A DNA stretch of 64,000 nucleotides from Ignavibacteriales bacterium. GTDB lineage: Bacteria > Bacteroidota > Ignavibacteria > UBA10030 > UBA6906. The position numbers were made by a program, and so were the translations under genes. The notes below the pieces were generated by a model. The model ran no database searches and was not told where the DNA came from. It saw nothing but the letters and a program-made list of their open reading frames with translations. The stretch's first letter is position 1; every line of letters begins with the position of its first letter. Shown here piece by piece: positions 18,385 through 40,615 of the stretch. Where the stretch lies: contig JBBIRR010000001.1 in the NCBI GenBank assembly GCA_037441705.1, forward strand, positions 192,001-256,000, given 5' to 3'.

Positions 18385-18443
18385 GTTCTTGAGTCTTAGC
18401 GCGACGTGAAGGATCGGTGGTTTCTTGTGATGGTAATTATTCT

Positions 18444-18484
18444 GGTTCGGGGTTCGGCGTTGGGGTTCAAGGTTCAAGGTTCAG
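18444..18484 (+). repeat. Solo 7-nt repeat arm (GGTTCRR)
   Basis: ggttcgg ggttcgg cgttgg ggttcaa ggttcaa ggttcag, between the nitrilase-family and aminotransferase genes. Confidence 0.75.
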
Positions 18485-18501
18485 GCACATGTGCACATCT
18501 C

Positions 18502-19439: not shown

Positions 19440-20777
19440 TTATCGAACAAGAACCAGTTTCTGAACTCGCAGTTCATTCTCCGCTTCGAGCCGATAGAAA
19501 TACACCCCCGACGGAATATCGGACAGATCAAGATGCACGGCATAATAGCCCGCGCTCTGATGTTCCGCAACGAGCGTGCGAACCGGACGACCGAGAAGGT
19601 CGTACACGCGTAACAACACATGTGCAGCGCGCGGAATTCCGTAGCGGATTGTCGTTGACGGATTGAGAGGATTGGGATAGTTCTGAAACAGTACCAGTGT
19701 CGAAGGCACCAGGGGCTGCATCGAAGCCACAGAAGATGGATTGAAATACCGCACGGCACGCCTCCAGAAAATCGCCACCGTGTCCGTACCGGAAACGACG
19801 CGTGCCGAGATCGTGTCGGTTCCCGGAAGCGTCGGGGCGGTGAGCGTCGCGGAGTATGTGCCATTCCCGTTGTCGCTGACGGCCCCGAGGGTTCCGGCTC
19901 CTGTGTTGCGCAGCAGGATCGTTCGTCCCGGCGCAAGCAGCGTGTCGGAATTGTTTTTGGGGATGATCAGAATCGCTGCCGCAGACGTTCCGTTGGCCGG
20001 CAGAGAATCGGGCGTGACAGCAAGTTGTGAGAGGAACGGATCGACACGCGTGCGAAGCGAATCCTTCCATTGATCGAACATCGTGTGCAGGATGGTGATC
20101 GGATCGCTTCCGACGGGGGAATCCGGAACGATCTTCTGCAGGTAGGGAACGGACCCGTCGCCGATGCGCACAACTTTGATGAACGACGAACGAGACGACG
20201 TGCCGCGCGAGGCACACCGCGTATCCGCCCCGATGATTTTCGCCGCTTCGAGTGTTGCCATCAAACGATCGGCAAGCGGTCCCGGCGTGCGCAGGAAGGT
20301 ATTCTTCATCGTGTCAATAATCATTTGGCCGGAGAGAATGTTGCCCTGAACGGCGTACCCTCTCCCCGTTGCGTGATTCTTGTAGTCTATGCAATTCACG
20401 CCGGTGTAGGCGGCGCTTTCGCCGCGTCGACGAAGATCAACCACGCCGTACTGACGGATCGTGGGATTGTTCTGCGCATCGTGCGCAACCATGTAATCAA
20501 TGATCTGCTGGGGGGAATCGCCGGCAAGCATGCGCTGTCGCGCCGTAAGCTGATTGGCTTCAAGGTAGGAGGCCTGCGTGTGGATAGCGCCGATCCCTTC
20601 CAGCACGTCGCTGAGAATAAACGCCCCGACGCCGTTGATGGCACCAACGCACGATGCCCCTGCGCTGCCGATTTCGCCCGTCACGGTGTCCACCGCAACA
20701 ATGGAAAAGGTATCCTGCGCAACGGCAGACCCCAAAAGAACAAACACCAACCCCACGCATGCAAGCTCTTTCTTCAT
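19440..20777 (-). CDS. Secreted DUF1028 (Ntn-hydrolase-like) protein with an invasin-type Ig domain and T9SS C-terminal domain
   Basis: Signal peptide, TFSIVAVD..TGEIG.AGASC, RQYGVVD, QGNIL. 'SLPANGTSAA...SDNGNGTYSATLTA' Ig domain. QNYPNPLNP...GVYFYRL...KLVLVR. Confidence 0.88.
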   Translation of the reverse strand: MKKELACVGLVFVLLGSAVAQDTFSIVAVDTVTGEIGSAGASCVGAINGVGAFILSDVLEGIGAIHTQASYLEANQLTARQRMLAGDSPQQIIDYMVAHDAQNNPTIRQYGVVDLRRRGESAAYTGVNCIDYKNHATGRGYAVQGNILSGQMIIDTMKNTFLRTPGPLADRLMATLEAAKIIGADTRCASRGTSSRSSFIKVVRIGDGSVPYLQKIVPDSPVGSDPITILHTMFDQWKDSLRTRVDPFLSQLAVTPDSLPANGTSAAAILIIPKNNSDTLLAPGRTILLRNTGAGTLGAVSDNGNGTYSATLTAPTLPGTDTISARVVSGTDTVAIFWRRAVRYFNPSSVASMQPLVPSTLVLFQNYPNPLNPSTTIRYGIPRAAHVLLRVYDLLGRPVRTLVAEHQSAGYYAVHLDLSDIPSGVYFYRLEAENELRVQKLVLVR

Positions 20778-20852
20778 GGTTATCACCGAAGCTGGTGGGT
20801 TGAAGTGGCTACGTACAACGATAGTAGAATTGGGGAAGGAAAGCAAGAATGC

Positions 20853-21312: not shown

Positions 21313-23850
21313 CTAACGTATGAGCAGCATCTTCCTGGTCAAGACAAAACGTCCCGCGCGTAGTTGATAGAAGTACACACCGCTGGCCAACCCAGTGCCG
21401 TCAAACCTCACCGACTTGAACTGGGGGCCTGTGGCGCCATGACGCTTCTCGCCACCTGCATCCTGAACCCCATCCACCAGTGTTGCCACCTCGCGCCCTT
21501 GCACGTCGTACACCTTCAACGACACAAGACCTGAACCGTGAAACTTGAATCGAATGGTTGTCCAGGGGTTGAACGGGTTTGGATAGTTCTGTTCCAGCAC
21601 CATGACTGCCGGCTGCTCAGGTTCCTCTCCCACAGCAGTAAGGGAGCTGAGAAGTCGTCGCTCATACACACCATTGCTGTGCGTCGCTGCACGCAGCACG
21701 CGGTGGGATGGCGAGACGACGAGGTCGGCAACAATCACAGCTTCGGGCAATCCGTCGTTGAAGCTCATCCACGCTGCGCCGCCATTGGTCGAGACGAACA
21801 CGCCGACGTCCGTCCCAACATACACATGATTCGTATTGAACGGATCAATCGCAACCGCGGTGGCAGGCACATTCAGCAGCGTGCCGCTGATGTCACTCCA
21901 GCTCAGGCCGCAATCCACTGACTTTGCGACCCGCATCGTATCGAAGCCACCGATGGCCACGTACACAACACGCGCATCGCGCGGGTCAACGGCGATATCC
22001 ATGTAGTAGCGGTTCGGAAGCGGACCGGTGACATCCTCCCACGTGATTCCGCCGTTCGTCGTCCTGAACAGATGAGGGCGTGCGATGCCCGGCACCGTAC
22101 CCACGAAAACCGTGTCGGGATGTGTCGGCGCAATCGCCATCGAAAGCATCGGATTGCCGTCGAGCGGCACACCGGCGTTGGTTGCAAACCAGCTCGTGCC
22201 CCCGTTCGTCGTCTTAGAAACGACGCTTCTTCCAAAATAGAGGACGTTTGGATGCGACGCCGAAAGAACAAACGGAGTATTCCAGCATGCCGCCCCGCTG
22301 AAATTCCCCGGCAGCGAACTGAACGAGACGCCGCGGTTCGTTGATCGGTAGATGCTGCCGCCTCCGCGGTTTCCCGCATACTGAATCAGATCGTTCTGTT
22401 GATTGATCGCCGTCCACCCAATCTCATCCACGCCGCCCGAGGGCCATGAAAGCGAGCCGACGTATTTGAAGCCGAAATGATCCTGCACGTGGCCCAATGC
22501 CATGAACGAATCCTGCGCCGAGCAGGAGAAGCCGTTGTAGAACTGCGACGTCAGCAGTCCCTGACTCGCGTTCTCATACGTCTCGCCGAAGTCCGTCGAA
22601 CGGTAGACGCCGCCATCACTCACCACATACAGTATGTTGGGGTTGGTAGGATGATGAGCGAAGTTGTGCATGTCGTAGTACGCACCGGATCGCTGCGAAG
22701 AGGTGACGCCGCCGTTGGTTGACTTGAAAATGTACACGCCGCCTCGCACCACCTGATTTGCGTCGGTGGGGTGCACGGCAGCGAATTGCGAGTACCAGCC
22801 CTGGACGCCGTAGAGCGCCTCGCTGCTCAGAAGTGTCCAGCTTGCACCGAAGTCCGTCGTGCGCCAGAGTGTGCCCGTACCCGTGGTGCTATCGGCAAGA
22901 CTTGCGAGTACGTACAGCGGGTTCGACCTTTGTTGCGAAAGCATCCCTTTGCCCGAGAACGCCGGCAGTCCGCCGATCATCGAAAAGGATTCGCCGCCAT
23001 CGGTCGAGCGATAGACGCCGCGACCCGGTGAGCCGAAGTTGCCGCATGTTGCAAGCACCTGTGTTGTATCCCACGCGTTGATGACGATGTCCTGTGCAAG
23101 CAGCGCGCTCAGTGTCTGATACCATGTTGCACCGGCATCCTTCGATTTGAAAATCCCTTCCGAGGTTGCTGCAAACACTGTGTTCGGGTTCAGAGGATTC
23201 AGCCTGATAGCTTGCACCCCGCGCTGTTGATGGTACGACCAGTCGAGGCTCCTCGTCCATGTTGCGCCGCCGTCGGTGGTCTTCAAAACGCCCATGCCGT
23301 AACTTCCGCGCGTCGTACGGATGACGATGCCGCCCGTCGAACCCTGGTAGCGATACACCTCCCCCGTCCCGATGTAGATGGTGTTCGTGTCGGTTGGATG
23401 GATGGCAATGGCGTTCACACCAAGCACCGGGTAACCGGTTTCCACTCGATGCCAGTCCCCGCCGAGCCCGCCGGTAAACGAGCGCCACAACCCGCCGCTT
23501 GCCGAGCCTGCGTAAACCGTCGAGGGATTCAGCGGATTCAACGCCACGGCGAGCATTCTTCCCGCGAAGTTGATCGGGCCGATCGATCGCCACATATCGA
23601 GCGCCGACGAGCGCGCCTCGGTCATTGTCTGCTTCACGTTTTCGAAAGCCCGGTACTGGGCATCGGGCGAGATATCGGCAAACGGGTACGCGCGCGACTG
23701 CGTCCACAACTGCAGCGCCTGCAGTGCATCCGAAGCGCTTTCCCGATCTCTGAGATCAAGCGGCAGAACGAACGTGAGAAAGAAGAGCAGAACCGAAAGA
23801 AGAATGAACTGTTTACGGTAATTGGTCACCATGCGATCAGACTGGCTCAC
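21313..23850 (-). CDS. Secreted BNR/Asp-box (VPS10/GH74-like) beta-propeller protein with T9SS C-terminal domain
   Basis: WRSIGP..FAGR, many (S/T)xDGGx(T/S)W Asp-boxes, QNYPNPFNP...SGVYFYQL...RKMLLIR. Confidence 0.88.
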   Translation of the reverse strand: MSQSDRMVTNYRKQFILLSVLLFFLTFVLPLDLRDRESASDALQALQLWTQSRAYPFADISPDAQYRAFENVKQTMTEARSSALDMWRSIGPINFAGRMLAVALNPLNPSTVYAGSASGGLWRSFTGGLGGDWHRVETGYPVLGVNAIAIHPTDTNTIYIGTGEVYRYQGSTGGIVIRTTRGSYGMGVLKTTDGGATWTRSLDWSYHQQRGVQAIRLNPLNPNTVFAATSEGIFKSKDAGATWYQTLSALLAQDIVINAWDTTQVLATCGNFGSPGRGVYRSTDGGESFSMIGGLPAFSGKGMLSQQRSNPLYVLASLADSTTGTGTLWRTTDFGASWTLLSSEALYGVQGWYSQFAAVHPTDANQVVRGGVYIFKSTNGGVTSSQRSGAYYDMHNFAHHPTNPNILYVVSDGGVYRSTDFGETYENASQGLLTSQFYNGFSCSAQDSFMALGHVQDHFGFKYVGSLSWPSGGVDEIGWTAINQQNDLIQYAGNRGGGSIYRSTNRGVSFSSLPGNFSGAACWNTPFVLSASHPNVLYFGRSVVSKTTNGGTSWFATNAGVPLDGNPMLSMAIAPTHPDTVFVGTVPGIARPHLFRTTNGGITWEDVTGPLPNRYYMDIAVDPRDARVVYVAIGGFDTMRVAKSVDCGLSWSDISGTLLNVPATAVAIDPFNTNHVYVGTDVGVFVSTNGGAAWMSFNDGLPEAVIVADLVVSPSHRVLRAATHSNGVYERRLLSSLTAVGEEPEQPAVMVLEQNYPNPFNPWTTIRFKFHGSGLVSLKVYDVQGREVATLVDGVQDAGGEKRHGATGPQFKSVRFDGTGLASGVYFYQLRAGRFVLTRKMLLIR

Positions 23851-23987
23851 GCCAAATAGACTCAGAGTCGATGACAGGGCACGAACGAATCAATTGTTCT
23901 CACGAGGAATAAGGCTGCACCCGAAAAACACAAGCGGTCGTCTCAGGCCTGAGATGACCGCTTTCAAATGTCCTCTGCGATGATGCG

Positions 23988-24323
23988 TTATGGTGTTTTT
24001 GATTCGAGCGCCGATATCCGCTGCTCATGGTCATCCAGTGTGCTCTTTGTTTTGGAGTAGTCGCGCCGGATTTCTTGAACAAGGTTTGTAAAATGGTACT
24101 GCATCTTCTCGTCCAACCGGGCGACAGTTGCGTCCGTGTAGGCCTTGAGCGTCTCCACGACGACCCCCAGCTTGGCATTGAGCTTTTCTTCAAGCTTTTC
24201 TTCAAGCTTTCGTTCGAGCTTTTGCTCGATCTTTTTCTCAAGGCGTGCACCAAAAGCAGCAAGCTCCTTCTGGAGAATAGCCTTTGTTACGATTTGACCG
24301 TTGATGGGTTTTTGTTTTGCCAT
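23988..24323 (-). CDS. Small coiled-coil hypothetical protein with KLEx tetrad repeats
   Basis: RLEKKIEQKLERKLEEKLEEKLNAKL, DHEQRISALE. Has its own promoter-like motif upstream. Confidence 0.7.
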   Translation of the reverse strand: MAKQKPINGQIVTKAILQKELAAFGARLEKKIEQKLERKLEEKLEEKLNAKLGVVVETLKAYTDATVARLDEKMQYHFTNLVQEIRRDYSKTKSTLDDHEQRISALESKTP

Positions 24324-24363
24324 CGAAATACTGAAGGTACGTGCGGCGTGTTCCGTTCGACCC

Positions 24364-24392
24364 AATGTACAATACACAATGTCGGAAGTCAA
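24364..24392 (-). promoter_or_regulatory. Candidate sigma70-type promoter for the coiled-coil gene
   Basis: Minus strand TTGACT, 17-nt spacer, TACATT. Confidence 0.5.
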
Positions 24393-24424
24393 GGAAAATT
24401 CTTGAATCGCATCCGCCCGTTTCC

Positions 24425-25669
24425 TCACACATTCCTGTGGCAGCTGTAGCACGCCGGACTCGCATAGATGTATCCCTGTCGGTTCCGATGCTTATCGTCC
24501 ATGCGGGTTTGTTCGTGCTCATGGCAACTGAGGCAGGTGAAGACTTGATATTGTGTCGGGGTAGGATGGCATTGGGTGCAGGACGTCCACTTGTTGCGGT
24601 GTTTTCCCGAATAGATTCTGAACGAGCGCGCATCGTGATCGAACGTCGAAGGTTGCCACGCCGTTGTGGTATGACACGGCGTGCAGTCGTGGCTGAATTG
24701 TGAGGCGACGTGATTCGGATTCGCCGCCTGCTCGAATTGCTGCGCGTGACACTGGTAGCAGTCCTGGTACGTCAGAGCGTAGTTGTTGTTGATGTGACAC
24801 GATGCGCACACGGTGGTCGCGTGCCTGCCGGTAAGAGGGAAGCCCGTGCTGGCGTGGTCGAACGTTGCCGGTCGCCAGGTAGACTGCGTGTGGCAGGAGC
24901 GGCACTCGGTGGAGAACCCGTTTGCGGCGTGTGCAGGATTCGTTGCGTTCGCGTACTCCGAGCGATGACAGCCAACGCACGCTGCATCCAATCCGCGGAA
25001 ACGATTGCCGGCGTGACACTGTGAGCAGGCAGTTGCGGCGTGTGCACCCACAAGCGGAAAGGCTGTGCGCGCATGATCGAACCCCGTGCCCCAGCTTCGC
25101 GCGGCCGGCTGATGGCACTGCAGGCAATCGGTAGAAAACTGCGCCGCCGCATGATTGGGCGATGCCGTCTGCGCGTACTCCCTGCGGTGGCACGCCACAC
25201 ACTCGATCGGTGTGCCGGCATACAACTGCTGGGCAGCATTGGTATGACATGCTTCGCATGTGAGCGAGGCATGCCTGCCAAGCAGGGCAAACCGCGTCGC
25301 CTGATGTTTCTGCAGCATGTCGGTGACTTTCCACGATGTTGTGGTGTGGCACCGCACGCAGAGCATACCGAGTTCTGCCTTGTGCACATCCGTGTGGCAG
25401 GCGGTGCACGCGGAAGAGGTTTTGACAAACTTCAACCCGGCGTGGCAGCTCGCACACTTCACAGCCTCATGTGCGCCGGTGAGTGCAAAGCCCGTTGATG
25501 CGTGGCGAAACGTCGCGTCCCTTTTCATCTTCCACGAGTCCGTGCTATGACACGATGCGCAGGCTAAGCGTATCGGGCCGTGCGGAGATTCCTGAGAAAC
25601 AAGAAAGGATGGAAGCTGGGTGAGAAAAACCGTCATCATCGTCCGGCGCAAAATCTTCCCTGTCGTCAT
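24425..25669 (-). CDS. Multiheme c-type cytochrome, 16 CxxCH
   Basis: AAAGGAGG RBS, signal peptide ending before QESPHGP, 16 CxxCH counted by hand, F(D/N)H..T.FPL.G.H repeats. Confidence 0.95.
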   Translation of the reverse strand: MTTGKILRRTMMTVFLTQLPSFLVSQESPHGPIRLACASCHSTDSWKMKRDATFRHASTGFALTGAHEAVKCASCHAGLKFVKTSSACTACHTDVHKAELGMLCVRCHTTTSWKVTDMLQKHQATRFALLGRHASLTCEACHTNAAQQLYAGTPIECVACHRREYAQTASPNHAAAQFSTDCLQCHQPAARSWGTGFDHARTAFPLVGAHAATACSQCHAGNRFRGLDAACVGCHRSEYANATNPAHAANGFSTECRSCHTQSTWRPATFDHASTGFPLTGRHATTVCASCHINNNYALTYQDCYQCHAQQFEQAANPNHVASQFSHDCTPCHTTTAWQPSTFDHDARSFRIYSGKHRNKWTSCTQCHPTPTQYQVFTCLSCHEHEQTRMDDKHRNRQGYIYASPACYSCHRNV

Positions 25670-25689
25670 CGTTGTTCCTCCTTTCCTGG

Positions 25690-27009
25690 TTAGGCTGCCG
25701 CTGCCTGTGCTTCGACCTCCACCGGTCGCATCTTGATGCCGCATCGTTTCAGCAGTTCGGTCGGCATCTCTCCTCCAGCAAACACAAAGACGAAGTCGTT
25801 GCGCAAGTTGTGCATAATGTTCCCGCGCTCCTGCACAATCACGGCGTCGGACTTGATCTCCACAACCTGCGAGGAGAAGATGACGTTGAGCTTGCCGGAT
25901 TCAATGAACTGCTGCACCTTCTGTTCGTTCTTCTCCTTCAACCGCACGAATTCTTCCTTGCGATAACTTATCGTCACGGTATTTCCGACCTGACTTGCAA
26001 GGCCGATAGCAGCTTCCACCGCGCTATCACCGCCGCCCACGACGAGGATGTGTTTGTGCTTGTAGGTTTCGGCTTCGATCAATCTATACATCACCTTCGT
26101 GAGCTGCTCGCCCGGCACGCCCAGTTTGCGCGGGCTGCCGCGCCGACCCAACGCAAGCATAACGTTGGCGGCTCGGAATTCCGCACCTTGCGTCTTCACG
26201 ATGAAGTGATCGTTCAACGCGTGGATCGCCTCCACCTTCTGGCCGGTCAGGATGTTCAGCCGGAACCGCCCGACAATGTCCTGCCAGATGGCAAGCAATT
26301 CTTCTTTCGAGATTTCAGAAACTTTCAGCTTGCCGTAGAGCGGCAGCTCGACGGGGCTGGTGAGGACGAGCTTTTGTCGCGGATAGTGGAGAATCGCGCC
26401 GCCGATTTCGTCCTGCTCGAGCACGACATAGCGCATGTTTTTTGCTTGTGCTGCAAGCGCGGCGGCAAGTCCGGCAGGCCCCGCACCGACAATCACGACA
26501 TCGAAATCGGCCACGTGTTTCGAGCGACGCGACGAGGCAATGTGCTCGAGACCTTTGATTCCCTGATGCACCGCGTTCTTGATCAAGCCGATCCCGCCCA
26601 ATTCACCCACAATATAGAGTCCGGCGACGTTCGTTTGAAAGTTATCGTCGTAGAACGGAATTTCCATCCCCTGGCGCGGCGTACCGAATGCAAGGGTCAC
26701 GGCCCCGACGGGACACACATCGGCACACAGACCGTGACCGACGCACTTTGTGCCGTTGATGATGGCCGGTCGCCCCTGAACAATTCCGAGCACATGCTCG
26801 GGACAGGCGCGCACGCAGCTCGCGCAGCCGATGCAATCCGTCAGATCGAAATGCGGATGCAGCGTCACAGGAGCCGTAATGCCCATTCGCCGACTCTTCT
26901 CATATTTTTCCGCGGCCTCACGATGATGGCGGGCAACGCGACGCCAGTACGGAACGGCAACCAGGCTCACAAGAATCAGGAAAATGACCGACGTGTAGAT
27001 GGTCTCCAT
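25690..27009 (-). CDS. Membrane-anchored ferredoxin fused to a TrxR/FNR-like FAD-NAD(P)H oxidoreductase
   Basis: N-terminal TM helix, CIGCASCVRACP and CVGHGLCADVCP, GAGPAG, GGGDSA, SYRK. Confidence 0.9.
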   Translation of the reverse strand: METIYTSVIFLILVSLVAVPYWRRVARHHREAAEKYEKSRRMGITAPVTLHPHFDLTDCIGCASCVRACPEHVLGIVQGRPAIINGTKCVGHGLCADVCPVGAVTLAFGTPRQGMEIPFYDDNFQTNVAGLYIVGELGGIGLIKNAVHQGIKGLEHIASSRRSKHVADFDVVIVGAGPAGLAAALAAQAKNMRYVVLEQDEIGGAILHYPRQKLVLTSPVELPLYGKLKVSEISKEELLAIWQDIVGRFRLNILTGQKVEAIHALNDHFIVKTQGAEFRAANVMLALGRRGSPRKLGVPGEQLTKVMYRLIEAETYKHKHILVVGGGDSAVEAAIGLASQVGNTVTISYRKEEFVRLKEKNEQKVQQFIESGKLNVIFSSQVVEIKSDAVIVQERGNIMHNLRNDFVFVFAGGEMPTELLKRCGIKMRPVEVEAQAAAA

Positions 27010-27066
27010 CTCGTTATCTCTCCTGCTCGATGTGCATGCTTGTGAGTGAAATGAAAATCAACGCCC

Positions 27067-28665
27067 TCAAAACCTCACGCTCAGTTCAGCGAAAACGGAG
27101 TTCGATATCGTGCCGTAGCCGTCCAGCCTATCGAACGTCGTCATCAAGGTAAGGGACTGAGTGATGAAGACGAGAAGGTCGGCGCCGAGGGTTGTACTGT
27201 GGTCGCGCTGGTTTGTCTGACGCACGGTGTAACCGCTACGTTGGATGCGCGCGGTGACATCGAACAGCGCGCCGAACGCCCGCTGCACGGCAACACCGTA
27301 GCCCGATGCGTGCGTGTAGCGGTTCGCATGCAGGTTCACCGTCGAACGCACGGCAATGCCTGAGGAAAGAATGTCGTTGAATGAAAGGGATGAGATGTTG
27401 GAGTATTCCCTGCCGAAGGCTGCCTCCGGTGCGTTGCGCGGCCGGTAGGTGTTTGTCAGAGCGATGCCCGCGGGAAGGAACCAATTGAACGTCAGGCTCA
27501 ATCCGGATCGCAGATCATCAATGAGCAGCGAATCGGGGATGTCGCGGACCGCGCGGAAGCTGTAATACGGACGCGCAGCGTCGGCACCGACTCCTACGCT
27601 GAGCGACCCTGCGATGCGATACGTGAGATGGATATAGGCAGCGGTCAAACGCGGCGAGAGAATGAACTCGCTCCCCGCCTTCTTCCGCAAATCTGTCTCG
27701 ACATTCCCATACACAAAGAGGCTGCTGCCAATCGAAGCGTTGAGCAGCAGGCTCGCCACTTCGCGGTCGAGAGCGGAACGATAGTACGTCCTCGCATACG
27801 CCGCACCAACGGAGAGTTGCGACGGCGCGGGCACCGACACTTGCGCGAACAGGGCGACCTTCTTGTACTCGGTGGAGATACTCCGGAGCGTGAAGTCCGG
27901 CTGATACCCAAGCGTCGTTCCGACAAGCAGGGGACCGAGCTTTGCCGAAGCCATCAGCCCGTCCACATAACCGATGGACGGCGCATAGATGGGGATGATC
28001 CTTCCAACGGAGAGAATCCGATCACCGTCGTCGTATGTTACCGAAAGTCCGTAGATGCGGGATTGGTTAACCGCGCGCTTCGAAAACGGACTCCGATTGC
28101 CGATGGTGAGCGAGCGAAGGTTGGCAAGGATTTCGACCTGCAGCGGCACATCACGCAGCCCGCCGCGCAAGTTCAGCACAACACCCGGTTGCGTAATGTT
28201 GAAGGCAGAGTTCTCATAAAGCGACGTGAAGTACTGTGCACTCACGCGTCCCTGCAGCGTGAACGGCGAGCGTTCTGCGATGGATGACGATCGAACCGGC
28301 TGAGGATTCGGCAGCGGCTCGCCGGACGTTCGCTCCAGTTGGGGTGCGGCGGGGTCGGCTTTCTTCTGCTCGAGCAGGATGACTCTCGCCCACACCTCAT
28401 CGCCGACCACAATCTGACGCAGCGCGCTCACGACCCTGCATACCGACGACTTGGAACTCACAGCGTACACCTTCAGCACCGCAGTGGTATCCCGTCCGGC
28501 AACGACGTACAGCAGCGTCGAGTCCTGCACGCCGCTTCCGCGACCCAGCGAGGTGTACACACTCCCGCCCGCAAGGTAGGTAACGGTTCCACGAACAATC
28601 TTCTCTTCCGCCTGCAGCATGCACGCCGCAAGCATTCCTATCACCACCACGGTCTTCTTCATCAC
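27067..28665 (-). CDS. Putative outer-membrane beta-barrel (porin) with a small N-terminal beta domain
   Basis: Signal peptide, Pro-rich linker, alternating amphipathic strands, C-terminal 'VFAELSVRF'. Lies between cytochrome genes. Confidence 0.8.
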   Translation of the reverse strand: MMKKTVVVIGMLAACMLQAEEKIVRGTVTYLAGGSVYTSLGRGSGVQDSTLLYVVAGRDTTAVLKVYAVSSKSSVCRVVSALRQIVVGDEVWARVILLEQKKADPAAPQLERTSGEPLPNPQPVRSSSIAERSPFTLQGRVSAQYFTSLYENSAFNITQPGVVLNLRGGLRDVPLQVEILANLRSLTIGNRSPFSKRAVNQSRIYGLSVTYDDGDRILSVGRIIPIYAPSIGYVDGLMASAKLGPLLVGTTLGYQPDFTLRSISTEYKKVALFAQVSVPAPSQLSVGAAYARTYYRSALDREVASLLLNASIGSSLFVYGNVETDLRKKAGSEFILSPRLTAAYIHLTYRIAGSLSVGVGADAARPYYSFRAVRDIPDSLLIDDLRSGLSLTFNWFLPAGIALTNTYRPRNAPEAAFGREYSNISSLSFNDILSSGIAVRSTVNLHANRYTHASGYGVAVQRAFGALFDVTARIQRSGYTVRQTNQRDHSTTLGADLLVFITQSLTLMTTFDRLDGYGTISNSVFAELSVRF

Positions 28666-31232
28666 ACATTCCTATGGCAACTGTAACATGCTTGACTGTT
28701 GTACTGATAGTTCGGAACGTTCTGATGCTCGCGATCCATCTCGCTCTGGCGATGTTCGTGACAACTGATGCAGGTAAAGATCTGGTACTGCCCGAGGGTC
28801 GGGTGACATTGTGAGCAGGAGGTCCACTTCCCGCGGTGTTTGCCCGAATAAATCCTGAAATACTGCAGGTCGTGGTTGAATGTTGACGGCCTCCAGGCAG
28901 TCGTCGTGTGGCACGGTGTGCAATCGTGGCTGAACTGGAGCGTCACGTGATTGGGGTTCTGCGGCTGTGCATACTGCGCAGCATGGCATTGATAACAATC
29001 CTGATACGTCAAGTTGTAGTTGTTGTTGACATGACAGGAGACGCACGGCGTCGTTACGTGCCGTCCCGTGAGCGGGAATGCAGAGTTGTTATGATCGAAC
29101 GATGCCGGACTCCACGCCGCCGTTGTGTGACACTCTGTGCAGTTCTGACTGAAGTTGCGAGCCACGTGGTTTGGGTTGGTCGTGTTGTTGAAGTCGGTGA
29201 GATGACAACCCACACACGCCGTCGGCAAACCCTGGTACTGGTTGTTCACATGGCACTGGTTGCACGACGTTGCCAGATGCGCCCCGGTCAACGGAAACGC
29301 CGTGTTCGCATGATTGAACGTGGACGGCAGCCACGCCGTCGTCGTATGGCACGGCGCGCAGTCGTGATTGAAGTTGCCCAGCACGTGGTTCGGATTCGTC
29401 GGCAATGCATACTGCGCCGTGTGACAGGGATAGCAGTTCGTGTACTGCAGCTGATAATTCCCGCTCACGTGGCAATCCTGACACTGAATCGTTGCGTGCC
29501 GCCCCGTCAGCGGGAAGTTTGTGCTTGCATGATTGAACGACGCCGGATGCCACGCCGATTGAGTGTGGCACGTCAAACAATCGTGACTGAACTGTCCCTG
29601 CTGATGGTTGGGATTGGTCGTATTGTTGAAGGCCGTCGCATGGCAATCCCAGCACGTGTGCGGAAGATTCTGATACTGATTGTTGCGATGACATTGGTTG
29701 CACGTCACCGTCTGATGCGCGCCAACTAACGGAAACGCCGTGGTCGCATGATTGAACGTGGACGGCAACCATGCCGTCGTCGTGTGGCACGGCGCGCAGT
29801 CATGATTGAAGTTGCCCAGCACGTGGTTCGGATTCGTCGGCAATGCATACTGCGCCGTGTGACAGGGATAGCAGTCCGTGTACTGCAGCTGATAATTCCC
29901 GTTCACGTGGCAATCCTGACACTGAATCGTTGCGTGCCGCCCCGTCAGCGGGAAGTTTGTGCTTGCATGATTGAACGACGCCGGATGCCACGCCGAGGTT
30001 GTGTGACACTCCGTGCAATTCATACTGAAGCCTGCCGTCTGGTGGTTCGGATTCGTCGCGTTGTTGAAGTTCGACCTGTGGCAATCCACACAATTAGAGG
30101 GGATGGTGGTGTACTGCCCGTTCCGATGACATTGCTCGCAGCTGATGGCAAGATGTGCCCCGGTCAGCGGGAACGCCGTTGTGCTGTGATTGAAAGTCGA
30201 GGGCCGCCATGCAGTCTGCGAATGGCACGTTGCACATTCGGTCGGAAAGTTGCCCGCGGTGTGGTTGGGGCTCGTGGTGCCGTTGTACGCCGGGCGATGA
30301 CAGGCCACGCACTCCGTCGGCCTGCCGGCAAATTGATTATCCGCGTGACAGGCGCGGCATTGTTGGACGTGATGCGCGCCTACAAGAGGAAAGAGAGTTT
30401 GGTTGTGATCGAACCGCGCACCCTCCCACGTTGCAGTCGTATGGCAGCTTTGACATTCGGAGGAGAACCGCGCCGCCGCGTGGTTCGGATTGGTTGTTGA
30501 AGCAAACGCCGCTTGATGGCACGCAGCACATTGCTGAGGCGTGGAGCTAAACGCCGGTGTTGTGTGACAATCCGCGCAGGCGGTGGTTCGGTGCGCGCCC
30601 GTGAGGGGAAACGCCGTCCCTTCGTGCGTAAACCCTGTGCCCCACCGAAACGCCGTCACCTGATGGCATTGCTCGCAGTTAGGAGAAAAGCGAGCGAACG
30701 CGTGATTGGGATTCGTCGTGCGAGCGTAATCGGAACGGTGACAGCCGGCGCAGACGGTCGGCGTCCCCGCAAACAGCTTCTGCGCCGCGTTGGTGTGGCA
30801 CATCTGGCATGCGAGCGTTGCGTGCTTGCCCAACAGCGGAAAGCGCGTCAGTTGATGCTTCTGCACCATGTCCCCCACCCGCCAATTATCCGTCGAGTGA
30901 CAGCGTGTACAGCCTGTGCCCAACTCGCCGCGATGGACATCCGTGTGGCAGGAGAAGCAATCCGATGAGGCCTTTGCAAATTTCAATCCTGCGTGACAGG
31001 ACGAACATTGCAGCGAAGTGTGTTGCCCTTGCAACACGAAGCCGGTTGCGGCATGATCGAAGCTTGCATCTTTTCTCAGCTTCCACGTCTCAGTGTTGTG
31101 ACAGCTCGCGCAGGCATACCGAATCGGCCCGTGCGGCGATTCCTGAGCGTACACGTTCTCACCCACACATATCGCCAGCGTCAACAGACCGGCAACGAAC
31201 AGGGCTTGTCCTGTGTGTGCTCTGTTAACCAT
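28662..31232 (-). CDS. Giant multiheme c-type cytochrome, 34 CxxCH
   Basis: Signal peptide ending NVYA-QESPHGP. 34 CxxCH counted by hand, arranged in 73-aa three-heme modules. Confidence 0.95.
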   Translation of the reverse strand: MVNRAHTGQALFVAGLLTLAICVGENVYAQESPHGPIRYACASCHNTETWKLRKDASFDHAATGFVLQGQHTSLQCSSCHAGLKFAKASSDCFSCHTDVHRGELGTGCTRCHSTDNWRVGDMVQKHQLTRFPLLGKHATLACQMCHTNAAQKLFAGTPTVCAGCHRSDYARTTNPNHAFARFSPNCEQCHQVTAFRWGTGFTHEGTAFPLTGAHRTTACADCHTTPAFSSTPQQCAACHQAAFASTTNPNHAAARFSSECQSCHTTATWEGARFDHNQTLFPLVGAHHVQQCRACHADNQFAGRPTECVACHRPAYNGTTSPNHTAGNFPTECATCHSQTAWRPSTFNHSTTAFPLTGAHLAISCEQCHRNGQYTTIPSNCVDCHRSNFNNATNPNHQTAGFSMNCTECHTTSAWHPASFNHASTNFPLTGRHATIQCQDCHVNGNYQLQYTDCYPCHTAQYALPTNPNHVLGNFNHDCAPCHTTTAWLPSTFNHATTAFPLVGAHQTVTCNQCHRNNQYQNLPHTCWDCHATAFNNTTNPNHQQGQFSHDCLTCHTQSAWHPASFNHASTNFPLTGRHATIQCQDCHVSGNYQLQYTNCYPCHTAQYALPTNPNHVLGNFNHDCAPCHTTTAWLPSTFNHANTAFPLTGAHLATSCNQCHVNNQYQGLPTACVGCHLTDFNNTTNPNHVARNFSQNCTECHTTAAWSPASFDHNNSAFPLTGRHVTTPCVSCHVNNNYNLTYQDCYQCHAAQYAQPQNPNHVTLQFSHDCTPCHTTTAWRPSTFNHDLQYFRIYSGKHRGKWTSCSQCHPTLGQYQIFTCISCHEHRQSEMDREHQNVPNYQYNSQACYSCHRNV
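29290..29996. repeat. Near-identical intragenic direct repeat (29290-29558 and 29728-29996)
   Basis: Two copies of about 269 nt, 438 nt apart. 7 mismatches by manual comparison. Confidence 0.9.
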
Positions 31233-32892
31233 TGCGGATGCTTCCTGGTGTATGACATGATTCGCACGTTGATGGCATCGGCTTGAAGCGAACGAACGCC
31301 GTCGCCCCCCGGCGTTCTTCGCGATGGCACCGGCGGCACGGCACTCGCACATGAGCGCCCGTCAACGCAAACGTGCTGTGGGTATTGTGATCGAAAATCA
31401 GATTCTTCCATCCCTGTGGCTGGTGACAGCGGGCGCAATCGCTGGAGCCGTTGACGGCAAACTGACCCGCATGCGCATCCTCGTGGCACGCCGCGCACCG
31501 CCTGTCGGTTCCTTTGTACTGCGGCACCTCGAATCCTCCAACCTTCTTCGCGCGATGACAGGCGCCGCATCTGACGCTCGCATGTTTACCCACGAGGGGA
31601 AAGTTCGTCTTTGCATGATCGAAACTCTCGGGCCGCCAGTCGGTCGTGGAATGACATGCGTCGCAGCTTCTGCCTTTCATCTCCTGAGCAAACTGCCCTC
31701 CGTGGCGATCGCGATGGCACGCCTCGCAGCGCAGGTCGGCAAAGTGAAAGCCGCGCCGCCCGTCGTCGCCGCGCACGTGACAATCCTCGCAGAGCACCGC
31801 CGCATGCGCTCCCGTCAGCGGAAAACGCGCAGCACGATGAGCAGCCACGGTAAACGTCGCAGGAACGAACCCGAACGGCGTGTGGCACGATTCACACCGA
31901 TTGCCGAAGCGGGCGGCAAAATCTCCACGATGATAGTCCACGTGGCAATCAGTACACGCATTGTGTGCCAACTTCAGGGCCGAACCTGCGCGGGAGGTTC
32001 CCGTCTTATGGCACTTCTCGCACGCAACAAGCGCATGCTTGCCGAGAAGCTTGAAGGCTGTCTGATCATGATTGAATTTGCCCGCCAATGTGCGAACATT
32101 CCAACCATCAGGTACATGGCACGAACGACACGGCTGCTGCGAAAATCTCGCACTGTGAGGTGAAACGTGACACGGTGCGCAATCCCCGAACTCCTTTGTC
32201 CCAAACAGAACCGGCATTGCTTTCGTCTTCTGCTCCGGCGATGTGTGGCACTTGCTACACGGTACTGTGGCGTGCTTGCCTGTCAACGCAAACTCGGTCT
32301 TCGCATGATCGAACGCAGGCGTCGGAGACCATGTCGATGTGGAATGACAGCTCTGGCACTCGGTCCCCACCGTTTTCGCATGGCGATCTTCATGACAGCT
32401 GATGCAGCCTGTGCCCAGTCCGAGAAACGTCTCCCGACCCGTCTTCTGCACAAGCGCCTTCACGTCCGCGTCCTGAATCAACCTCGGTGTATGGCACTCC
32501 TCGCAGCGGATTGTTGCGTGCTTCCCCGTTCTCACGAATCCCGTGCGCGCATGATCAAACGAAAGCCGATCAATCAGAACCGTCTTCGCCTCAGCGCCAA
32601 GGTGTTCCTTATGACATGCAACGCACGGCTGCGATGAGACATTGAAATGATATCCCCTCTTTCTCTGGAGAGCGTTCTTGATCTCGGTATGACAGGTGAG
32701 ACACTTCCTGCCGCTGATTTCTTTCCCTGTTTCATGGCATTGCAGACAGTTGTTGATGCCTTCCAACTGCCGATGCGCACGCGAGAGCTCGCCCGGCGAA
32801 AACTGCGCGAACGAGTGGGCCATGATACCCACGGTAAGCATCAGCGAAACCCGAAGTGCCTGCACAACCCTCATCCTTCTGCCTTCCATCAA
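31225..32892 (-). CDS. Multiheme c-type cytochrome, 20 CxxCH
   Basis: Signal peptide, QFSPGELSRAH..LEG..NCLQCH start, 20 CxxCH counted by hand. Confidence 0.95.
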   Translation of the reverse strand: MMEGRRMRVVQALRVSLMLTVGIMAHSFAQFSPGELSRAHRQLEGINNCLQCHETGKEISGRKCLTCHTEIKNALQRKRGYHFNVSSQPCVACHKEHLGAEAKTVLIDRLSFDHARTGFVRTGKHATIRCEECHTPRLIQDADVKALVQKTGRETFLGLGTGCISCHEDRHAKTVGTECQSCHSTSTWSPTPAFDHAKTEFALTGKHATVPCSKCHTSPEQKTKAMPVLFGTKEFGDCAPCHVSPHSARFSQQPCRSCHVPDGWNVRTLAGKFNHDQTAFKLLGKHALVACEKCHKTGTSRAGSALKLAHNACTDCHVDYHRGDFAARFGNRCESCHTPFGFVPATFTVAAHRAARFPLTGAHAAVLCEDCHVRGDDGRRGFHFADLRCEACHRDRHGGQFAQEMKGRSCDACHSTTDWRPESFDHAKTNFPLVGKHASVRCGACHRAKKVGGFEVPQYKGTDRRCAACHEDAHAGQFAVNGSSDCARCHQPQGWKNLIFDHNTHSTFALTGAHVRVPCRRCHREERRGATAFVRFKPMPSTCESCHTPGSIRNG

Positions 32893-33749
32893 AAAATCCA
32901 GCGATAGCCCAGCATCACCGTTACGATAACGTGGGCCGCAAGCGTTATGAACATGATTACCGTGAAGGGCAGATGCACGGCATGCCAGTAAAAGAACAGC
33001 TTTTCCACCTGAGCAAGAACGATCGTCTTTTGCAGCAGCATTGTGCGTGCGGAAGCAAGCTTGAAGAGTGTCCGTGCTTGATGGTGCGAGAGACCGCTGC
33101 GCGCAATTGCTTCGTGCATCGCATGCTTCACACTCCGCCGCGCCCCGTGCAGCCGGAACAGTAACGCAGCCGTGTCACGCATCGTGGCAGGTGGGCGAAC
33201 CGATGCAAAGCGCTCATCCATGCTCGCCATCAGTTGTTTGCCCAGGGGAGATAGACCCAGCTCTCTCCCGAGCCTGTCCAGTTCGCCTCTGATCTCTTGC
33301 TGTGTCAGTTCTGTGCCCTTGATGTTCCGCGGGATCTGCACGTACAGGAATCTCCCGATAACGCCGCTTGCGGCCACGGAGAGCATACACCAGAGACTCA
33401 CGGCGGCGATGCCGCCCGCTTTGAAGGTGGTATGAAAGAGAACGAGAATGGGACCAAGCAGGCAGAGGAAGATATGGACTTCAAGCCAGCGCGACAGCTT
33501 ACCCAGATTCCACAATGCACGCACGCGCTTGCGCGTGGAGTACATGGTAACGCCGACAATGATCATCGTCGAGCCGATGATGCCGAGCCCGTGGCTGTAC
33601 GTGCCCGAGGGCTTCATCATTTCGTAGTCGGCGAGAAAGGGACGCTGGGAAATGGGCGTTGCGTAGTAGTGAAACCCGCGCGCGCCGATGGCGAGGACAG
33701 CAGAGAAGGATATAACGAACAGGAATGCGACAAAGAACTTATGTGCCAA
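32889..33749 (-). CDS. Inner-membrane protein with probable heme-b His ligands (ferric-reductase/cytochrome b-like)
   Basis: About 5 TM helices, WLEVHIFLCLLGP.LVLFH, WHAVHLPF...AAHV. First gene of the cytochrome operon. Confidence 0.8.
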   Translation of the reverse strand: MAHKFFVAFLFVISFSAVLAIGARGFHYYATPISQRPFLADYEMMKPSGTYSHGLGIIGSTMIIVGVTMYSTRKRVRALWNLGKLSRWLEVHIFLCLLGPILVLFHTTFKAGGIAAVSLWCMLSVAASGVIGRFLYVQIPRNIKGTELTQQEIRGELDRLGRELGLSPLGKQLMASMDERFASVRPPATMRDTAALLFRLHGARRSVKHAMHEAIARSGLSHHQARTLFKLASARTMLLQKTIVLAQVEKLFFYWHAVHLPFTVIMFITLAAHVIVTVMLGYRWIF

Positions 33750-34016
33750 CGACAGTTTTCCCCTTCAGGCGATCGCCGTTGAATAGACGACCACCCAGCC
33801 GAAAGAGTTGAGTGTGATTCTTCGGCACAACCGGCGAAACAGTGTAGGGATTTTTTCATTCATGAACAAGGACTGAAACGGTCGGAGTTGTTGCATTCAA
33901 CGCATGAAATGCTCCTCTTGTGCATTCCGAGAATGGCGTTTGCGTTTTCTTGATTTGCCTTCTGCTCCGCGTTGCCGTATCATACACATGTCGTCCAATC
34001 TCCCCTGAGGACTGTC

Positions 34017-36299
34017 ATGCATGATCAAGAGGATGTAACAATGAGGGCAAAAGCACCCGGCCCGAGTGACGTTCGGGCCAAGGGGGGCGACGCTCCGGAT
34101 ACAGTGACGCCGATCGACGGGCAGCAATCGCCGGCAAAGCCCACCCGGAGTCGAAGTCCGAGAGTGCGGCGACGCAGAACCGCGCCGCCGGCCGATGTGG
34201 GCCCGCTCGGCACATCGTCGCTCGACCCGGCACTCTACATCAACCGCGAGCTGAGCTGGCTCGAATTCAACCAGCGCGTGCTGGAGGAGGCACACGACAC
34301 GCGCCACCCACTGCTCGAACGCGTGAAGTTTCTCGCCATCGCAAGTTCCAACCTGGACGAGTTCTTCATGATTCGCGTCGCGGCAATCAAAGAGCAGATT
34401 CTTGCCGACGTCGTAGAGTTTTCCCCGGACGGGAAAGTCCCGACCCAGCAGCTCAAAGAGATTCACCAGCGCGTCGACCGGATGATGAAGGAGAAGGCCG
34501 ATCTCTTCTGGAACGACCTCCATCCAAAACTCGCAGCAAGCGGCATACACCTTCTCACCATGAAGGAGTGCACGTCCGAGGAACGCGCCCGTCTGACAGA
34601 GTTTTTTGCAAAGGAAATCTTTCCCGTCCTCACGCCGCTGGCGTTCGACCCCGGCCATCCGTTCCCGTATATCTCGAACCTGAGTTTGAGTCTCGCCGTT
34701 GTGGTGCGCAGCCCGAAGGGTGAGGAACGTTTTGCGCGCGTGAAGGTGCCCGATGTGCTGCCGCGCCTTGTGGCGATTCCGGGCAGCGACGCGGGGACGT
34801 TCCGCTTCGTCTGGCTGGAAGAGTTGATTCGTGAGAACCTCGGCATGCTGTTCCCCGGCATGGCGGTGACGGAATCGTATGCGTTTCAGGTAACGCGCAA
34901 CGCGGACATCGAGATTCAGGAAGATGAAGCCGAGGACCTCATCCGCTCGATCGAAGAGTCCATCAAGATGCGGCGGTTCGGTTCCGTGGTACGCCTGCTC
35001 GTGGAAAATACCATGCCGCAACGGATTATTGACGTCCTCGCGGAGAATCTCGAGATCACACCGGACGACGTGTACCACTTTCGTCCACCGCTCGGTCTCA
35101 GTCATCTCATGCAGCTGCTGAAACTGCCGCGCCCCGACTTGAAGGACCCACCGTATCACCCTGCAATGCTCTTCAGCGACGACGAGGGCGAGGATATCTT
35201 CGGTCTCATCAGGCGAGGCGACATCGTGTTGCATCATCCGTACGACTCGTTCGCTCCGATCGTCCAATTCATCAAAGCCGCCGCGCACGACCCGAATGTT
35301 CTTGCCATCAAACAGACACTCTACCGTATCGGAAAAGAATCGCCTCTGGTTCCGCTTCTGATTCAGGCTGCCGAAAGCGGCAAGCAGGTCGCCGTGTTGG
35401 TGGAGTTGAAAGCCCGCTTCGACGAAGAGAACAACATCGGCTGGGCAAAGAAATTAGAACGCGCCGGCATTCATGTCGTCTACGGATTGGTGGGATTGAA
35501 AACGCATGCGAAGGTCGCTCTCGTTGTTCGGAAGGAAGCAGACGGCCTGCGGCGCTACGTGCATCTCGGCACCGGCAACTACAATCCGGATACCGCACGC
35601 ATCTATACCGACATCAGCTACCTGACCTGCAAGGAAGATATCGCCGCCGATGCTTCGGAGGTGTTCAACTTCCTCACGGGGTTCTCCAACAAGCAGGAGT
35701 TTCAGAAACTGGTCGTCGCGCCGCTGAACCTGCGCACGCGCCTCACGCAGCTCATCGAGCGGGAAATTCAACACGCCCGCAGCGGCAAGCCCGCACACAT
35801 CATGCTCAAGATGAATGCCCTCACCGACATCAAAATGATCGAGATGCTCTACGAAGCGTCGAAAGCGAAAGTCAAGATCGACATGATCGTCCGGGGAATC
35901 TGCTCTCTGCGGCCCGGCGTCAAGGGCGTGAGCGAGAACATTCGCGTGATCAGTATTGTGGGGAGATTTCTCGAACACAGCCGCGTGTTCTATTTCTCGA
36001 ACGATGGCCGGCCGGAACTCTACTGCAGCAGCGCCGACCTGATGGGTCGCAATCTTGACCGACGCGTGGAACTGATGTTCCCGATTGAAGACCCGGTGTG
36101 GGCCGCATTCGTCAAACGCGAGACGCTTGATGCAGCATGGGAAGACACGGTGGGCGCGCGAATGCTTACCGCCAACGGCACATACGCGCGTGTGCAGCCT
36201 GCAAACGGCAGAGAGCCATTTGAGATGCAGGCGTTCCTCATGCACACGCGCCTGAAACAAGAACCGAAGAAAGCAGTGCCGCGTGAAGTGCCCGGGTAG
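34017..36299 (+). CDS. ppk1: Polyphosphate kinase 1
   Basis: NRELSWLEFNQRVL, SNLDEFFMIRVA, HHPYDSF, ELKARFDEENNI, KTHAK, GRFLEHSR. Start uncertain (34017 or 34041). Confidence 0.97.
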   Translation: MHDQEDVTMRAKAPGPSDVRAKGGDAPDTVTPIDGQQSPAKPTRSRSPRVRRRRTAPPADVGPLGTSSLDPALYINRELSWLEFNQRVLEEAHDTRHPLLERVKFLAIASSNLDEFFMIRVAAIKEQILADVVEFSPDGKVPTQQLKEIHQRVDRMMKEKADLFWNDLHPKLAASGIHLLTMKECTSEERARLTEFFAKEIFPVLTPLAFDPGHPFPYISNLSLSLAVVVRSPKGEERFARVKVPDVLPRLVAIPGSDAGTFRFVWLEELIRENLGMLFPGMAVTESYAFQVTRNADIEIQEDEAEDLIRSIEESIKMRRFGSVVRLLVENTMPQRIIDVLAENLEITPDDVYHFRPPLGLSHLMQLLKLPRPDLKDPPYHPAMLFSDDEGEDIFGLIRRGDIVLHHPYDSFAPIVQFIKAAAHDPNVLAIKQTLYRIGKESPLVPLLIQAAESGKQVAVLVELKARFDEENNIGWAKKLERAGIHVVYGLVGLKTHAKVALVVRKEADGLRRYVHLGTGNYNPDTARIYTDISYLTCKEDIAADASEVFNFLTGFSNKQEFQKLVVAPLNLRTRLTQLIEREIQHARSGKPAHIMLKMNALTDIKMIEMLYEASKAKVKIDMIVRGICSLRPGVKGVSENIRVISIVGRFLEHSRVFYFSNDGRPELYCSSADLMGRNLDRRVELMFPIEDPVWAAFVKRETLDAAWEDTVGARMLTANGTYARVQPANGREPFEMQAFLMHTRLKQEPKKAVPREVPG

Positions 36300-39228: not shown

Positions 39229-39236
39229 CTCCCCGA

Positions 39237-40400: not shown

Positions 40401-40615
40401 TTTGCACAGCCGCAGCCGCCGCCAATCCCCGCCGCTCCCCCGATGCTTCCCTCACGCGTGGAGAAGAACTTCTGCTCGAGCGTCTGCTTGGCAAACACAT
40501 CCGTCCGCTCCATGATCGGGTCACCGAGGTTGGCGCGTTGATACACTTTCACGGTTGTACATCCCGCGAGAAAATACAACAGGAGAAGAAGCGCGAAGAG
40601 GTGTGTCAGGCGCAT
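40397..40615 (-). CDS. DUF4266 family lipoprotein
   Basis: Lipobox LAGC, VKVYQRANL.DPIM, REGS.GG....GGGCGC C-terminus. Confidence 0.92.
   Translation of the reverse strand: MRLTHLFALLLLLYFLAGCTTVKVYQRANLGDPIMERTDVFAKQTLEQKFFSTREGSIGGAAGIGGGCGCAK

Follow-up and report, generated by a model that had tools for sequence, protein, structure and literature searches.

A 64,000-nt stretch of DNA from an Ignavibacteriales bacterium (GenBank assembly GCA_037441705.1, contig JBBIRR010000001.1, positions 192,001 to 256,000; hereafter, the window) carries on its minus strand, at positions 24425-33749, an operon of six tightly packed genes, which we call g1 to g6 in their order along that strand and which encode a membrane protein (g1), two multiheme c-type cytochromes (g2 and g3), a beta-barrel (g4), a flavoprotein (g5), and a third multiheme cytochrome (g6). 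We conclude that the operon probably encodes a trans-envelope electron conduit of the predicted PCC3 type, a kind of porin-cytochrome complex, with a split flavocytochrome resembling that of the NADPH oxidases (NOX) as a quinone-free entry point at the inner membrane. According to the mechanism that we propose, cytoplasmic NAD(P)H would reduce the FAD of g5, and the electrons would pass through two g5 iron-sulfur clusters to a cytoplasmic-side b heme of g1 (His92/His259) and then to a periplasmic-side b heme (His106/His273). From there they would enter the 20-heme periplasmic cytochrome g2 and move, through or at the g4 barrel, to g3, or to its short paralog g6, outside the cell. The end acceptor would be insoluble or macromolecular, for example Fe(III) or Mn(IV) minerals, humic substances, or a partner cell, and the route would have no need of the quinone pool.

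Components of the operon

In our open reading frame (ORF) map of the window, which has a G+C content of about 56%, three of the operon's junctions are overlaps of 4, 8, and 4 nt, the last being that of g4 with the g3 stop codon, and the other two are gaps of 57 and 20 nt. The cytochromes contain 20 (g2), 34 (g3), and 16 (g6) CXXCH motifs, or 70 in 1,825 aa. Since only two occur in the 18,101 aa of the window's 50 other long ORFs, this enrichment is not due to chance. The same three proteins contain 44, 78, and 34 histidines, respectively, and bis-His ligation is therefore possible for every heme. These counts and the positions of all six ORFs agree with an earlier note on this DNA, which had described a six-gene, 70-heme operon made up of these parts.

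Pfam matches in g2, g3, and g6 were to the Cytochrome_C7, c3, class III, and MtrC/MtrF domain II/IV families. Orthologs of g2 (31225-32892; 555 aa with a signal peptide; 27.8 aa per heme) had exactly 20 CXXCH motifs in all eight intact copies from metagenome-assembled genomes (MAGs) of the Fibrobacterota-Chlorobiota-Bacteroidota (FCB) group, a constancy that fits a wire across a periplasmic gap of fixed width. In g3 (28662-31232; 856 aa from its probable start; 25.2 aa per heme; Cytochrome_C7 E 1.4e-35), the motifs recur with a spacing of 32-16-25, which defines a 73-residue triheme module present in about nine copies between a head and a tail. In g3 orthologs, which at times consist of two genes, the heme number varies from 22 to 51 as triheme modules are gained or lost, a variation that would fit a part lying in free space with no constraint on its length. 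We infer that g2 is a periplasm-spanning wire and g3 an extracellular one. The g2 and g3 orthologs of three related loci (L006, L011, and L012) are split into overlapping ORFs that suggest frameshifts from assembly error or decay, and heme counts from them were excluded. The longest ORF containing g3 extends to 31352 (28662-31352); the start is probably at 31232 instead, the first position of a signal peptide, and none of the 34 motifs is lost with this choice.

The shorter cytochrome g6 (24425-25669; 414 aa from its probable start near 25669; longest ORF, 24425-25744) is 52% identical to the C-terminal half of g3 and 49% identical to its N-terminal half. It has the same head and tail, with identical motif spacing at both ends, and six fewer triheme modules. 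Among the nine related loci with a flavoprotein gene, only one (L001) has a g6 ortholog. Judged by this distribution and by its identity to g3, g6 is a lineage-specific short paralog that lies outside a conserved core of five genes. The six-gene set of the earlier note is thus present in the window, but its 16-heme member does not belong to what is conserved.

A sorting domain of the type IX secretion system (T9SS), Por_Secre_tail, which is a mark of the FCB group, was found by Pfam scan in four proteins of the window (19440-20846, 21313-23850, 36769-39228, and 45896-48016) and in none of g2, g3, and g6. The presence of T9SS-sorted proteins downstream of the operon fits an FCB-group organism.

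The AlphaFold2 (AF2) model of g4 (27067-28665; 532 aa with a signal peptide and no CXXCH motif), which was built from a 40-sequence alignment, had a mean predicted local distance difference test (pLDDT) score of 85.4. It comprises a small N-terminal beta domain (residues 21-96) and, after a disordered linker (98-129), a region of about 22 beta strands that spans residues 135-531. No Pfam family matched g4, and a Foldseek search with the model returned 363 Protein Data Bank (PDB) matches at E ≤ 0.001, which were outer-membrane barrels, none of them specific. The g4 family consists of 90 clusters of about 530 aa, all named "hypothetical protein," from MAGs of Ignavibacteriae, Bacteroidota, and "Chlorobi." In the ESM Atlas, the neighbors of a g4 homolog are unnamed barrels from Bacteroidota, Planctomycetota, Gemmatimonadota, and Acidobacteriota. 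By its model and structural neighbors, g4 is an outer-membrane barrel, as the earlier note had supposed.

The membrane protein g1 (32889-33749; 286 aa) is hydrophobic, contains 13 histidines, and matched no Pfam family at E ≤ 0.01 and no NCBIfam model. Its AF2 model (mean pLDDT, 93) is that of a helical membrane protein with five transmembrane (TM) helices at residues ~2-24, 50-75, 85-106, 113-137, and 255-279 and a helical insert between the last two (~138-250), which we assigned to the cytoplasm. Three motifs stand out: W88-X3-H92-X13-H106 on TM3, S128-G-x-x-G132 on TM4, and W255-X3-H259-X13-H273 on TM5. In an alignment of 56 family members, His106, His259, His273, Ser128, and Gly132 are invariant, and His92, Trp88, and His256 nearly so; two HX13H motifs were present in all 56 sequences and SGxxG in 55. 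The family is large, with 2580 relatives at E ≤ 1e-3 among 50%-identity representatives, none of which has a Pfam family; the Atlas neighbors of g1 are hypothetical proteins from Acidobacteriota and Gemmatimonadota. Neither a sequence profile search of the PDB nor a Foldseek search against it (0 matches at E ≤ 0.001) gave a significant match to g1.

The accessible text of He et al. (2017, Front Microbiol 8:1584, PMC5566968) describes the inner-membrane protein (IMP) of PCC3 and PCC4 by a length of about 300 aa, a count of five TM helices, an SGXXG motif on TM4, and one WX3HX13H motif each on TM3 and TM5, a signature that the authors took to bind two b hemes. The signature of g1 is an exact match to this pattern, and we likewise predict from its two HX13H motifs that g1 is a diheme cytochrome b. 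Because the loop at residues 71-87 is basic, the positive-inside rule would place the His92/His259 pair near the cytoplasm and the His106/His273 pair near the periplasm.

The flavoprotein g5 (25690-27009; 439 aa) begins with a hydrophobic helix that is followed by a basic run, and since by the same rule basic residues after the anchor helix point inward, the bulk of the protein is likely to be cytoplasmic. Pfam matches were to Fer4 dicluster motifs, Pyr_redox_3 (E 4.8e-48), and Pyr_redox_2 (E 8.1e-29). Both cluster motifs, CxxCxxCxxxCP and CxxHxxCxxxCP, were present in 41 of 41 homologs, one Planctomycetota sequence among them, the second motif having an invariant His in place of its second Cys. 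Both dinucleotide-binding glycine motifs were also invariant in the 41 sequences, in which the second Rossmann motif is followed by an SYR...F.R stretch. In the form SYR(K/R)xxFxR, this stretch resembles the NADPH-phosphate-binding motif of thioredoxin reductases. We rejected assignment of g5 to YpdA (176.9 bits against an NCBIfam cutoff of 339.9) and to thioredoxin reductase (95.5 bits against a cutoff of 343.45), and none of the 41 homologs had a CxxC after residue 120. Given the scores below cutoff and the missing CxxC, the "thioredoxin reductase" names that databases give to relatives of g5 are misleading. Its domain matches and motifs identify g5 as a two-cluster ferredoxin joined to a two-Rossmann FAD/NAD(P)H domain of the thioredoxin reductase/YpdA type without the redox disulfide. 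A His/Arg-rich plus-strand ORF at 25672-27045 (457 aa) is longer than g5; we rejected it as a shadow ORF, as the strong Pfam domains sit on the minus-strand frame. It would mislead a gene caller that prefers the longest ORF.

Conservation of the cluster and linkage of g1 to g5

To collect related loci, we scanned one genome per species with a barrel alignment of 15 closer sequences, which reached close relatives and two Planctomycetota loci and yielded 14 loci. These were scored by BLASTP and tblastn, and plasmids were searched by tblastn. The nearest related loci were in MAGs of Ignavibacteriae, Bacteroidota, "Chlorobi," and "Chitinophagales." The order g1-g2-g3-g4-g5 was found in 7 of the 12 FCB MAG loci (L002, L003, L004, L005, L009, L010, and L011); two others (L001 and L008) have g3-g4-g5 on contigs that are cut upstream, and g5 follows the barrel gene in 9 of the 12. 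In the two Planctomycetota loci (L013 and L014) the order is g5-g1-cytochromes-barrel. A homologous cluster (L015) is present on plasmid pEMTOL02 of the cultured bacterium Emticicia oligotrophica DSM 17448 (cluster genes EMTOL_RS21090 to RS21110), where ccsA is followed by genes for a g1-like protein (36% identity), a g5-like protein (44.5%), two cytochromes with first 23 and then 40 hemes, and a barrel-like protein that is 20% identical to g4 over 406 aa (E 7.6e-16). The co-occurrence of reductase and conduit on which the earlier note had staked its reading was thus found in 9 of 12 FCB MAG loci, both Planctomycetota loci, and the Emticicia plasmid. A match to g5 on a Pseudoalteromonas plasmid (L016) was rejected as unrelated, since it covers only the FAD domain and lies inside a glycosyltransferase cluster.

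Several of these loci contain additional genes. The ccsA gene of the Emticicia plasmid, a cytochrome c maturation gene, is a fused form located directly upstream of the g1 homolog (L015, 8887-11973), and a gene for a protein with tetratricopeptide repeat (TPR)/CcmH-like features lies between g1 and g2 in L010 (2110-2709). In L013, the cytochrome encoded before the barrel has only 10 hemes, and the barrel gene is followed by one for a 1013-aa protein with 11 CXXCH motifs (10990-14031); the outer cytochrome of this locus may thus be encoded on the far side of the barrel gene.

Three lines of observation connect g1 to g5. Both genes are present in the window and in 10 further loci (L002-L005, L009-L011, L013, L014, and L015), and both are absent from two (L006 and L012). 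Neither was found singly, so the two genes are jointly present or jointly absent in 13 of 13 scorable loci; three loci were left out of this scoring because of contig ends. In L013, L014, and pEMTOL02, which differ in gene order, g1 and g5 are direct neighbors. Finally, of four longer g1 homologs that we found, three are g5::g1 fusions (737, 737, and 769 aa; one Myxococcaceae MAG). The fusion protein P0369 is 43% identical to g5 over residues 24-430 and 25% identical to g1 over residues 469-736. All three fusions have the anchor helix, both cluster motifs including CxxHxxCxxxCP, and the FAD/NAD(P)H domain, followed by the IMP with both WX3HX13H motifs, an order that fits a cytoplasmic reductase joined to a cytoplasmic N terminus of g1. 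Largely separate from one another, the fusions, the kept adjacency, and the shared presence or absence are together evidence that g5 and g1 work as one unit, lending computational support to the link between reductase and membrane protein that the earlier note had proposed. Complex predictions for g1 with g5 gave scores of 0.31, 0.22, and 0.27 against a mark of 0.32; made without controls, they weigh neither for nor against binding.

The fourth long g1 homolog, P0371 (651 aa, from a Bdellovibrionota MAG), combines a cNMP-binding domain and a 4Fe-4S dicluster domain with a g1-like domain that has both WX3HX13H motifs, and it has no FAD domain. Its architecture hints at variants of the membrane module that are regulated or fed differently.

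Comparison with known systems and alternative explanations

As defined in the accessible text of He et al., PCC3 combines a porin and an IMP with two cytochromes, one extracellular (median, 34 hemes) and one periplasmic (median, 21 hemes), both repeat rich and with low ratios of amino acids to hemes; it was predicted in Sideroxydans, Leptothrix, and other Proteobacteria (PMC5566968) and is not known to have been characterized biochemically. The same four-part definition appears in the accessible text of a later pangenome study (PMC10734462). The window has a counterpart to each of the four components: a 286-aa IMP with five TM helices and both motif types, cytochromes with 20 and 34 hemes (against medians of 21 and 34) that would be the periplasmic and the extracellular one, and a barrel. 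The cytochromes also share the low ratios (27.8 and 25.2 aa per heme) and the repeats, here the 73-aa triheme module. The window differs in that its host belongs to the FCB group rather than to the Proteobacteria, in that its barrel has about 22 strands whereas up to 42 TM regions are predicted for the PCC3 porin, and in the addition of an extra short outer cytochrome and an IMP-linked ferredoxin-FAD-NAD(P)H flavoprotein gene. We find that g1-g2-g3-g4 fits the PCC3 type, with which the earlier note had suggested a comparison, in the features of protein length, motifs, heme number, and gene neighborhood, and extends it to a new phylum-level group.

The coupling of g5 to a PCC3-type set is a new element and gives the pathway a different proposed entry point. 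In our literature search, no paper named both PCC3 and Ignavibacteri..., HX13H motifs together with multiheme cytochromes came up only in He et al. (2017), and no paper on Emticicia multiheme cytochromes was found. The search returned papers on Melioribacter multiheme cytochromes and extracellular electron transfer (EET), none of them listed as describing a reductase. It found no NAD(P)H flavoprotein coupled to a PCC3-type conduit, with fusions, and no quinone bypass by NADH or ferredoxin.

The closest parallel to the proposed g1/g5 module is found in E. coli MsrQ with the flavin reductase Fre and in NOX, FRE, and STEAP, in which b hemes, stacked and with bis-His ligation on two HX13H-type helices, take electrons from cytoplasmic NAD(P)H by way of a flavin and hand them on across the membrane, as we predict for g1 and g5. 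As with g1 and g5, both split (MsrQ plus Fre) and fused (NOX) forms exist, according to the accessible text of a study of MsrQ (PMC12525009). The differences are considerable. We rejected membership of g1 in the ferric reductase domain/NOX family (PF01794), with which it has only the two-HX13H feature in common: unlike NOX, FRE, and MsrQ, g1 has no PF01794 match, no structural neighbor in the PDB, and five TM helices rather than six. The flavoprotein g5 is of the thioredoxin reductase/YpdA type with a two-cluster ferredoxin domain, whereas those of NOX and Fre are FNR type or Fre type. The proposed acceptor is a multiheme cytochrome chain, in place of O2, an Fe(III) chelate, or MsrP.

The outer part of the system is comparable in its overall logic to MtrCAB of Shewanella and to MtoAB/PioAB, with one multiheme cytochrome in the periplasm, another on the outside, and a barrel in the outer membrane, and the MtrC/MtrF domain II/IV similarity points the same way. 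The heme numbers differ from those of MtrCAB, being 20, 34, and 16 rather than 10, and so does the entry, which in MtrCAB is the quinol-oxidizing tetraheme cytochrome CymA. We rejected assignment of g2, g3, and g6 to the DmsE/MtrA decaheme family (TIGR03508; 51.7, 22.2, and 27.5 bits against a cutoff of 192.2) and to the HmcA hexadecaheme family (NF045713; 39.1, 26.4, and 19.8 bits against a cutoff of 400). In the Hmc and Tmc complexes of sulfate reducers, too, a periplasmic multiheme cytochrome c is connected with an iron-sulfur protein in the cytoplasm by way of a cytochrome b in the membrane. They lack an NAD(P)H flavoprotein as well as an outer-membrane part, and they are thought to carry electrons inward.

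Several observations weigh against a conduit that is fed by g5 through g1. In 3 of the 12 FCB loci (L006, L007, and L012), g2-g3-g4 is present without g5; L006 and L012 are without g1 as well, and in L007 the contig breaks off 141 nt upstream of g2. Since L006 and L012 have neither gene, the outer part can run on another electron source. The related loci share ancestry, so that the co-occurrence counts are not independent events. The potentials of typical [4Fe-4S] ferredoxins lie below that of NAD(P)H, and one step of the proposed chain may be uphill. Lastly, heme binding by g1 is read from its motifs, as neither the ferric reductase domain nor any solved structure shows a detectable likeness to it.

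The remaining objections bear on the electron source. To our knowledge, every well-studied Gram-negative EET route begins at the quinone pool, with CymA, ImcH, and CbcL all starting at quinol, and g1 might similarly be a quinol dehydrogenase or quinone reductase that ties the conduit to this pool, with g5 as an accessory or alternative donor. This is the role that He et al. proposed for the IMPs of PCC3 and PCC4: they noted the resemblance of HX13H to NOX and ferric reductase-type enzymes and chose electron exchange with quinones, and the proteobacterial PCC3 clusters in the accessible text are described without a reductase (PMC5566968). Their Supplementary Table 6 does include clusters of multiheme cytochromes and IMPs with an "other redox protein" of 412-425 or 608-805 aa, which may or may not be g5-like. 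MsrQ, too, is described in the accessible text as having been found carrying ubiquinone (PMC12525009). What speaks against a quinone-linked g1 is the joint pattern of g1 and g5 in all 13 scorable loci, their adjacency in three gene orders, and the three natural fusions, and we therefore regard that explanation as unlikely and favor the flavocytochrome.

As to direction, which the earlier note had held to be unreadable from sequence, the matter is not fully open. Established bioenergetics holds that electrons leaving the electrically negative cytoplasm are aided by the membrane potential and that the reverse would need donors well below the potential of NAD(P)H; together with the topology, this makes outward flow much more likely. 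Outward flow would consume the membrane potential that aids it, and the system would be an electron sink for the regeneration of NAD(P)+ rather than a respiratory chain that pumps protons. We consider it highly improbable that the conduit works inward, with electrons from extracellular Fe(II), minerals, or a cathode reducing NAD(P)+ via g1 and g5 for biosynthesis. Such movement would oppose the negative-inside potential, NAD(P)+ at about -320 mV lies below the Fe(II)/Fe(III) mineral couples, and the operon encodes no energy-coupling subunit, although PCC3 was discovered in Fe(II) oxidizers and modeled for electron uptake (PMC5566968, PMC10734462) and conduits of the Mto/Mtr type are discussed as possibly reversible (PMC10734462), as far as the accessible texts go. 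A further explanation is that g5 and g1 feed the periplasm for a non-respiratory purpose, such as reduction of cytochromes or heme during maturation, assimilatory ferric reduction, or NOX-like production of extracellular superoxide. The ccsA gene next to the Emticicia g1 homolog and the TPR/CcmH-like gene of L010 would suit such a role, and NOX, FRE, and MsrQ, with the same two-HX13H logic, serve such ends in the accessible texts (PMC5566968, PMC12525009). However, neither the window operon nor most of the loci contain biogenesis genes, and such tasks would need far less than 70 hemes with a barrel of their own and an outer cytochrome that can expand, which makes this explanation improbable.

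Gene neighborhood and implications

A 222-nt intergenic region (33750-33971), which presumably contains the promoter, separates g1 from a divergent polyphosphate kinase gene (33972-36299, plus strand). A scan of positions 23700-34200 for sigma-70 promoters and terminators found sites no more often than in shuffled sequences (three sigma-70 sites against 3.5 expected), and we therefore assigned no promoter in this region. A polyphosphate kinase gene is found beside the cluster elsewhere as well, divergent from g1 in L002, L003, and L005 and downstream of g5 in L009 and L010. Its position may represent conserved synteny or a functional link; the neighbors of the operon are otherwise unrelated to it. 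On the other side, the ORF at 23988-24452, downstream of g6, was left out of the system, having no family match and no homolog in the related loci.

Elsewhere in the window, the minus strand at 8723-19371 carries an apparent cluster for reductive pyrimidine catabolism, with genes for a cytosine/uracil-type permease, a dihydropyrimidinase-like amidohydrolase, a class-III aminotransferase, a CN-hydrolase, and two dihydropyrimidine-dehydrogenase-like subunits (DHO_dh plus Fer4_21, and Fer4_20 plus Pyr_redox_2). A gene for a 23S rRNA-intervening-sequence protein (16483-16953) lies in the middle of this cluster. The only other two CXXCH motifs of the window are in a 747-aa protein encoded on the minus strand at 40625-42868, which has a hydrazine-synthase-alpha middle domain and a PD40 repeat. 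It adjoins a DUF3570 protein gene (39237-40400) and the gene for the T9SS-sorted protein at 36769-39228 (minus strand), an FlgD_ig/NHL protein, and together the three may form a small second module of redox or outer-membrane function (36769-42868).

The question of what feeds the predicted PCC3 and PCC4 conduits has been an open guess since 2017, and g5 gives a concrete alternative to the quinone pool. We put forward, more tentatively than the assignment of the operon itself, that g5 and g1 may represent an unrecognized prokaryotic class of transmembrane flavocytochrome, with the order NAD(P)H-FAD-2[FeS]-2 heme b and with both split and fused forms, that drives quinone-free EET at the cost of membrane potential. 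If so, the widespread IMP of PCC3- and PCC4-type clusters would be the membrane half of a flavocytochrome and not a quinol oxidase, and a large nameless membrane family, with its 2580 representatives in Bacteroidota, Acidobacteriota, Gemmatimonadota, Planctomycetota, and other groups, would gain a role. The presence of the cluster on a plasmid of the cultured and harmless E. oligotrophica DSM 17448 makes genetics and biochemistry feasible. For the organisms that carry it, the system would be a wire from NAD(P)H to the cell surface that serves redox balancing rather than energy conservation.

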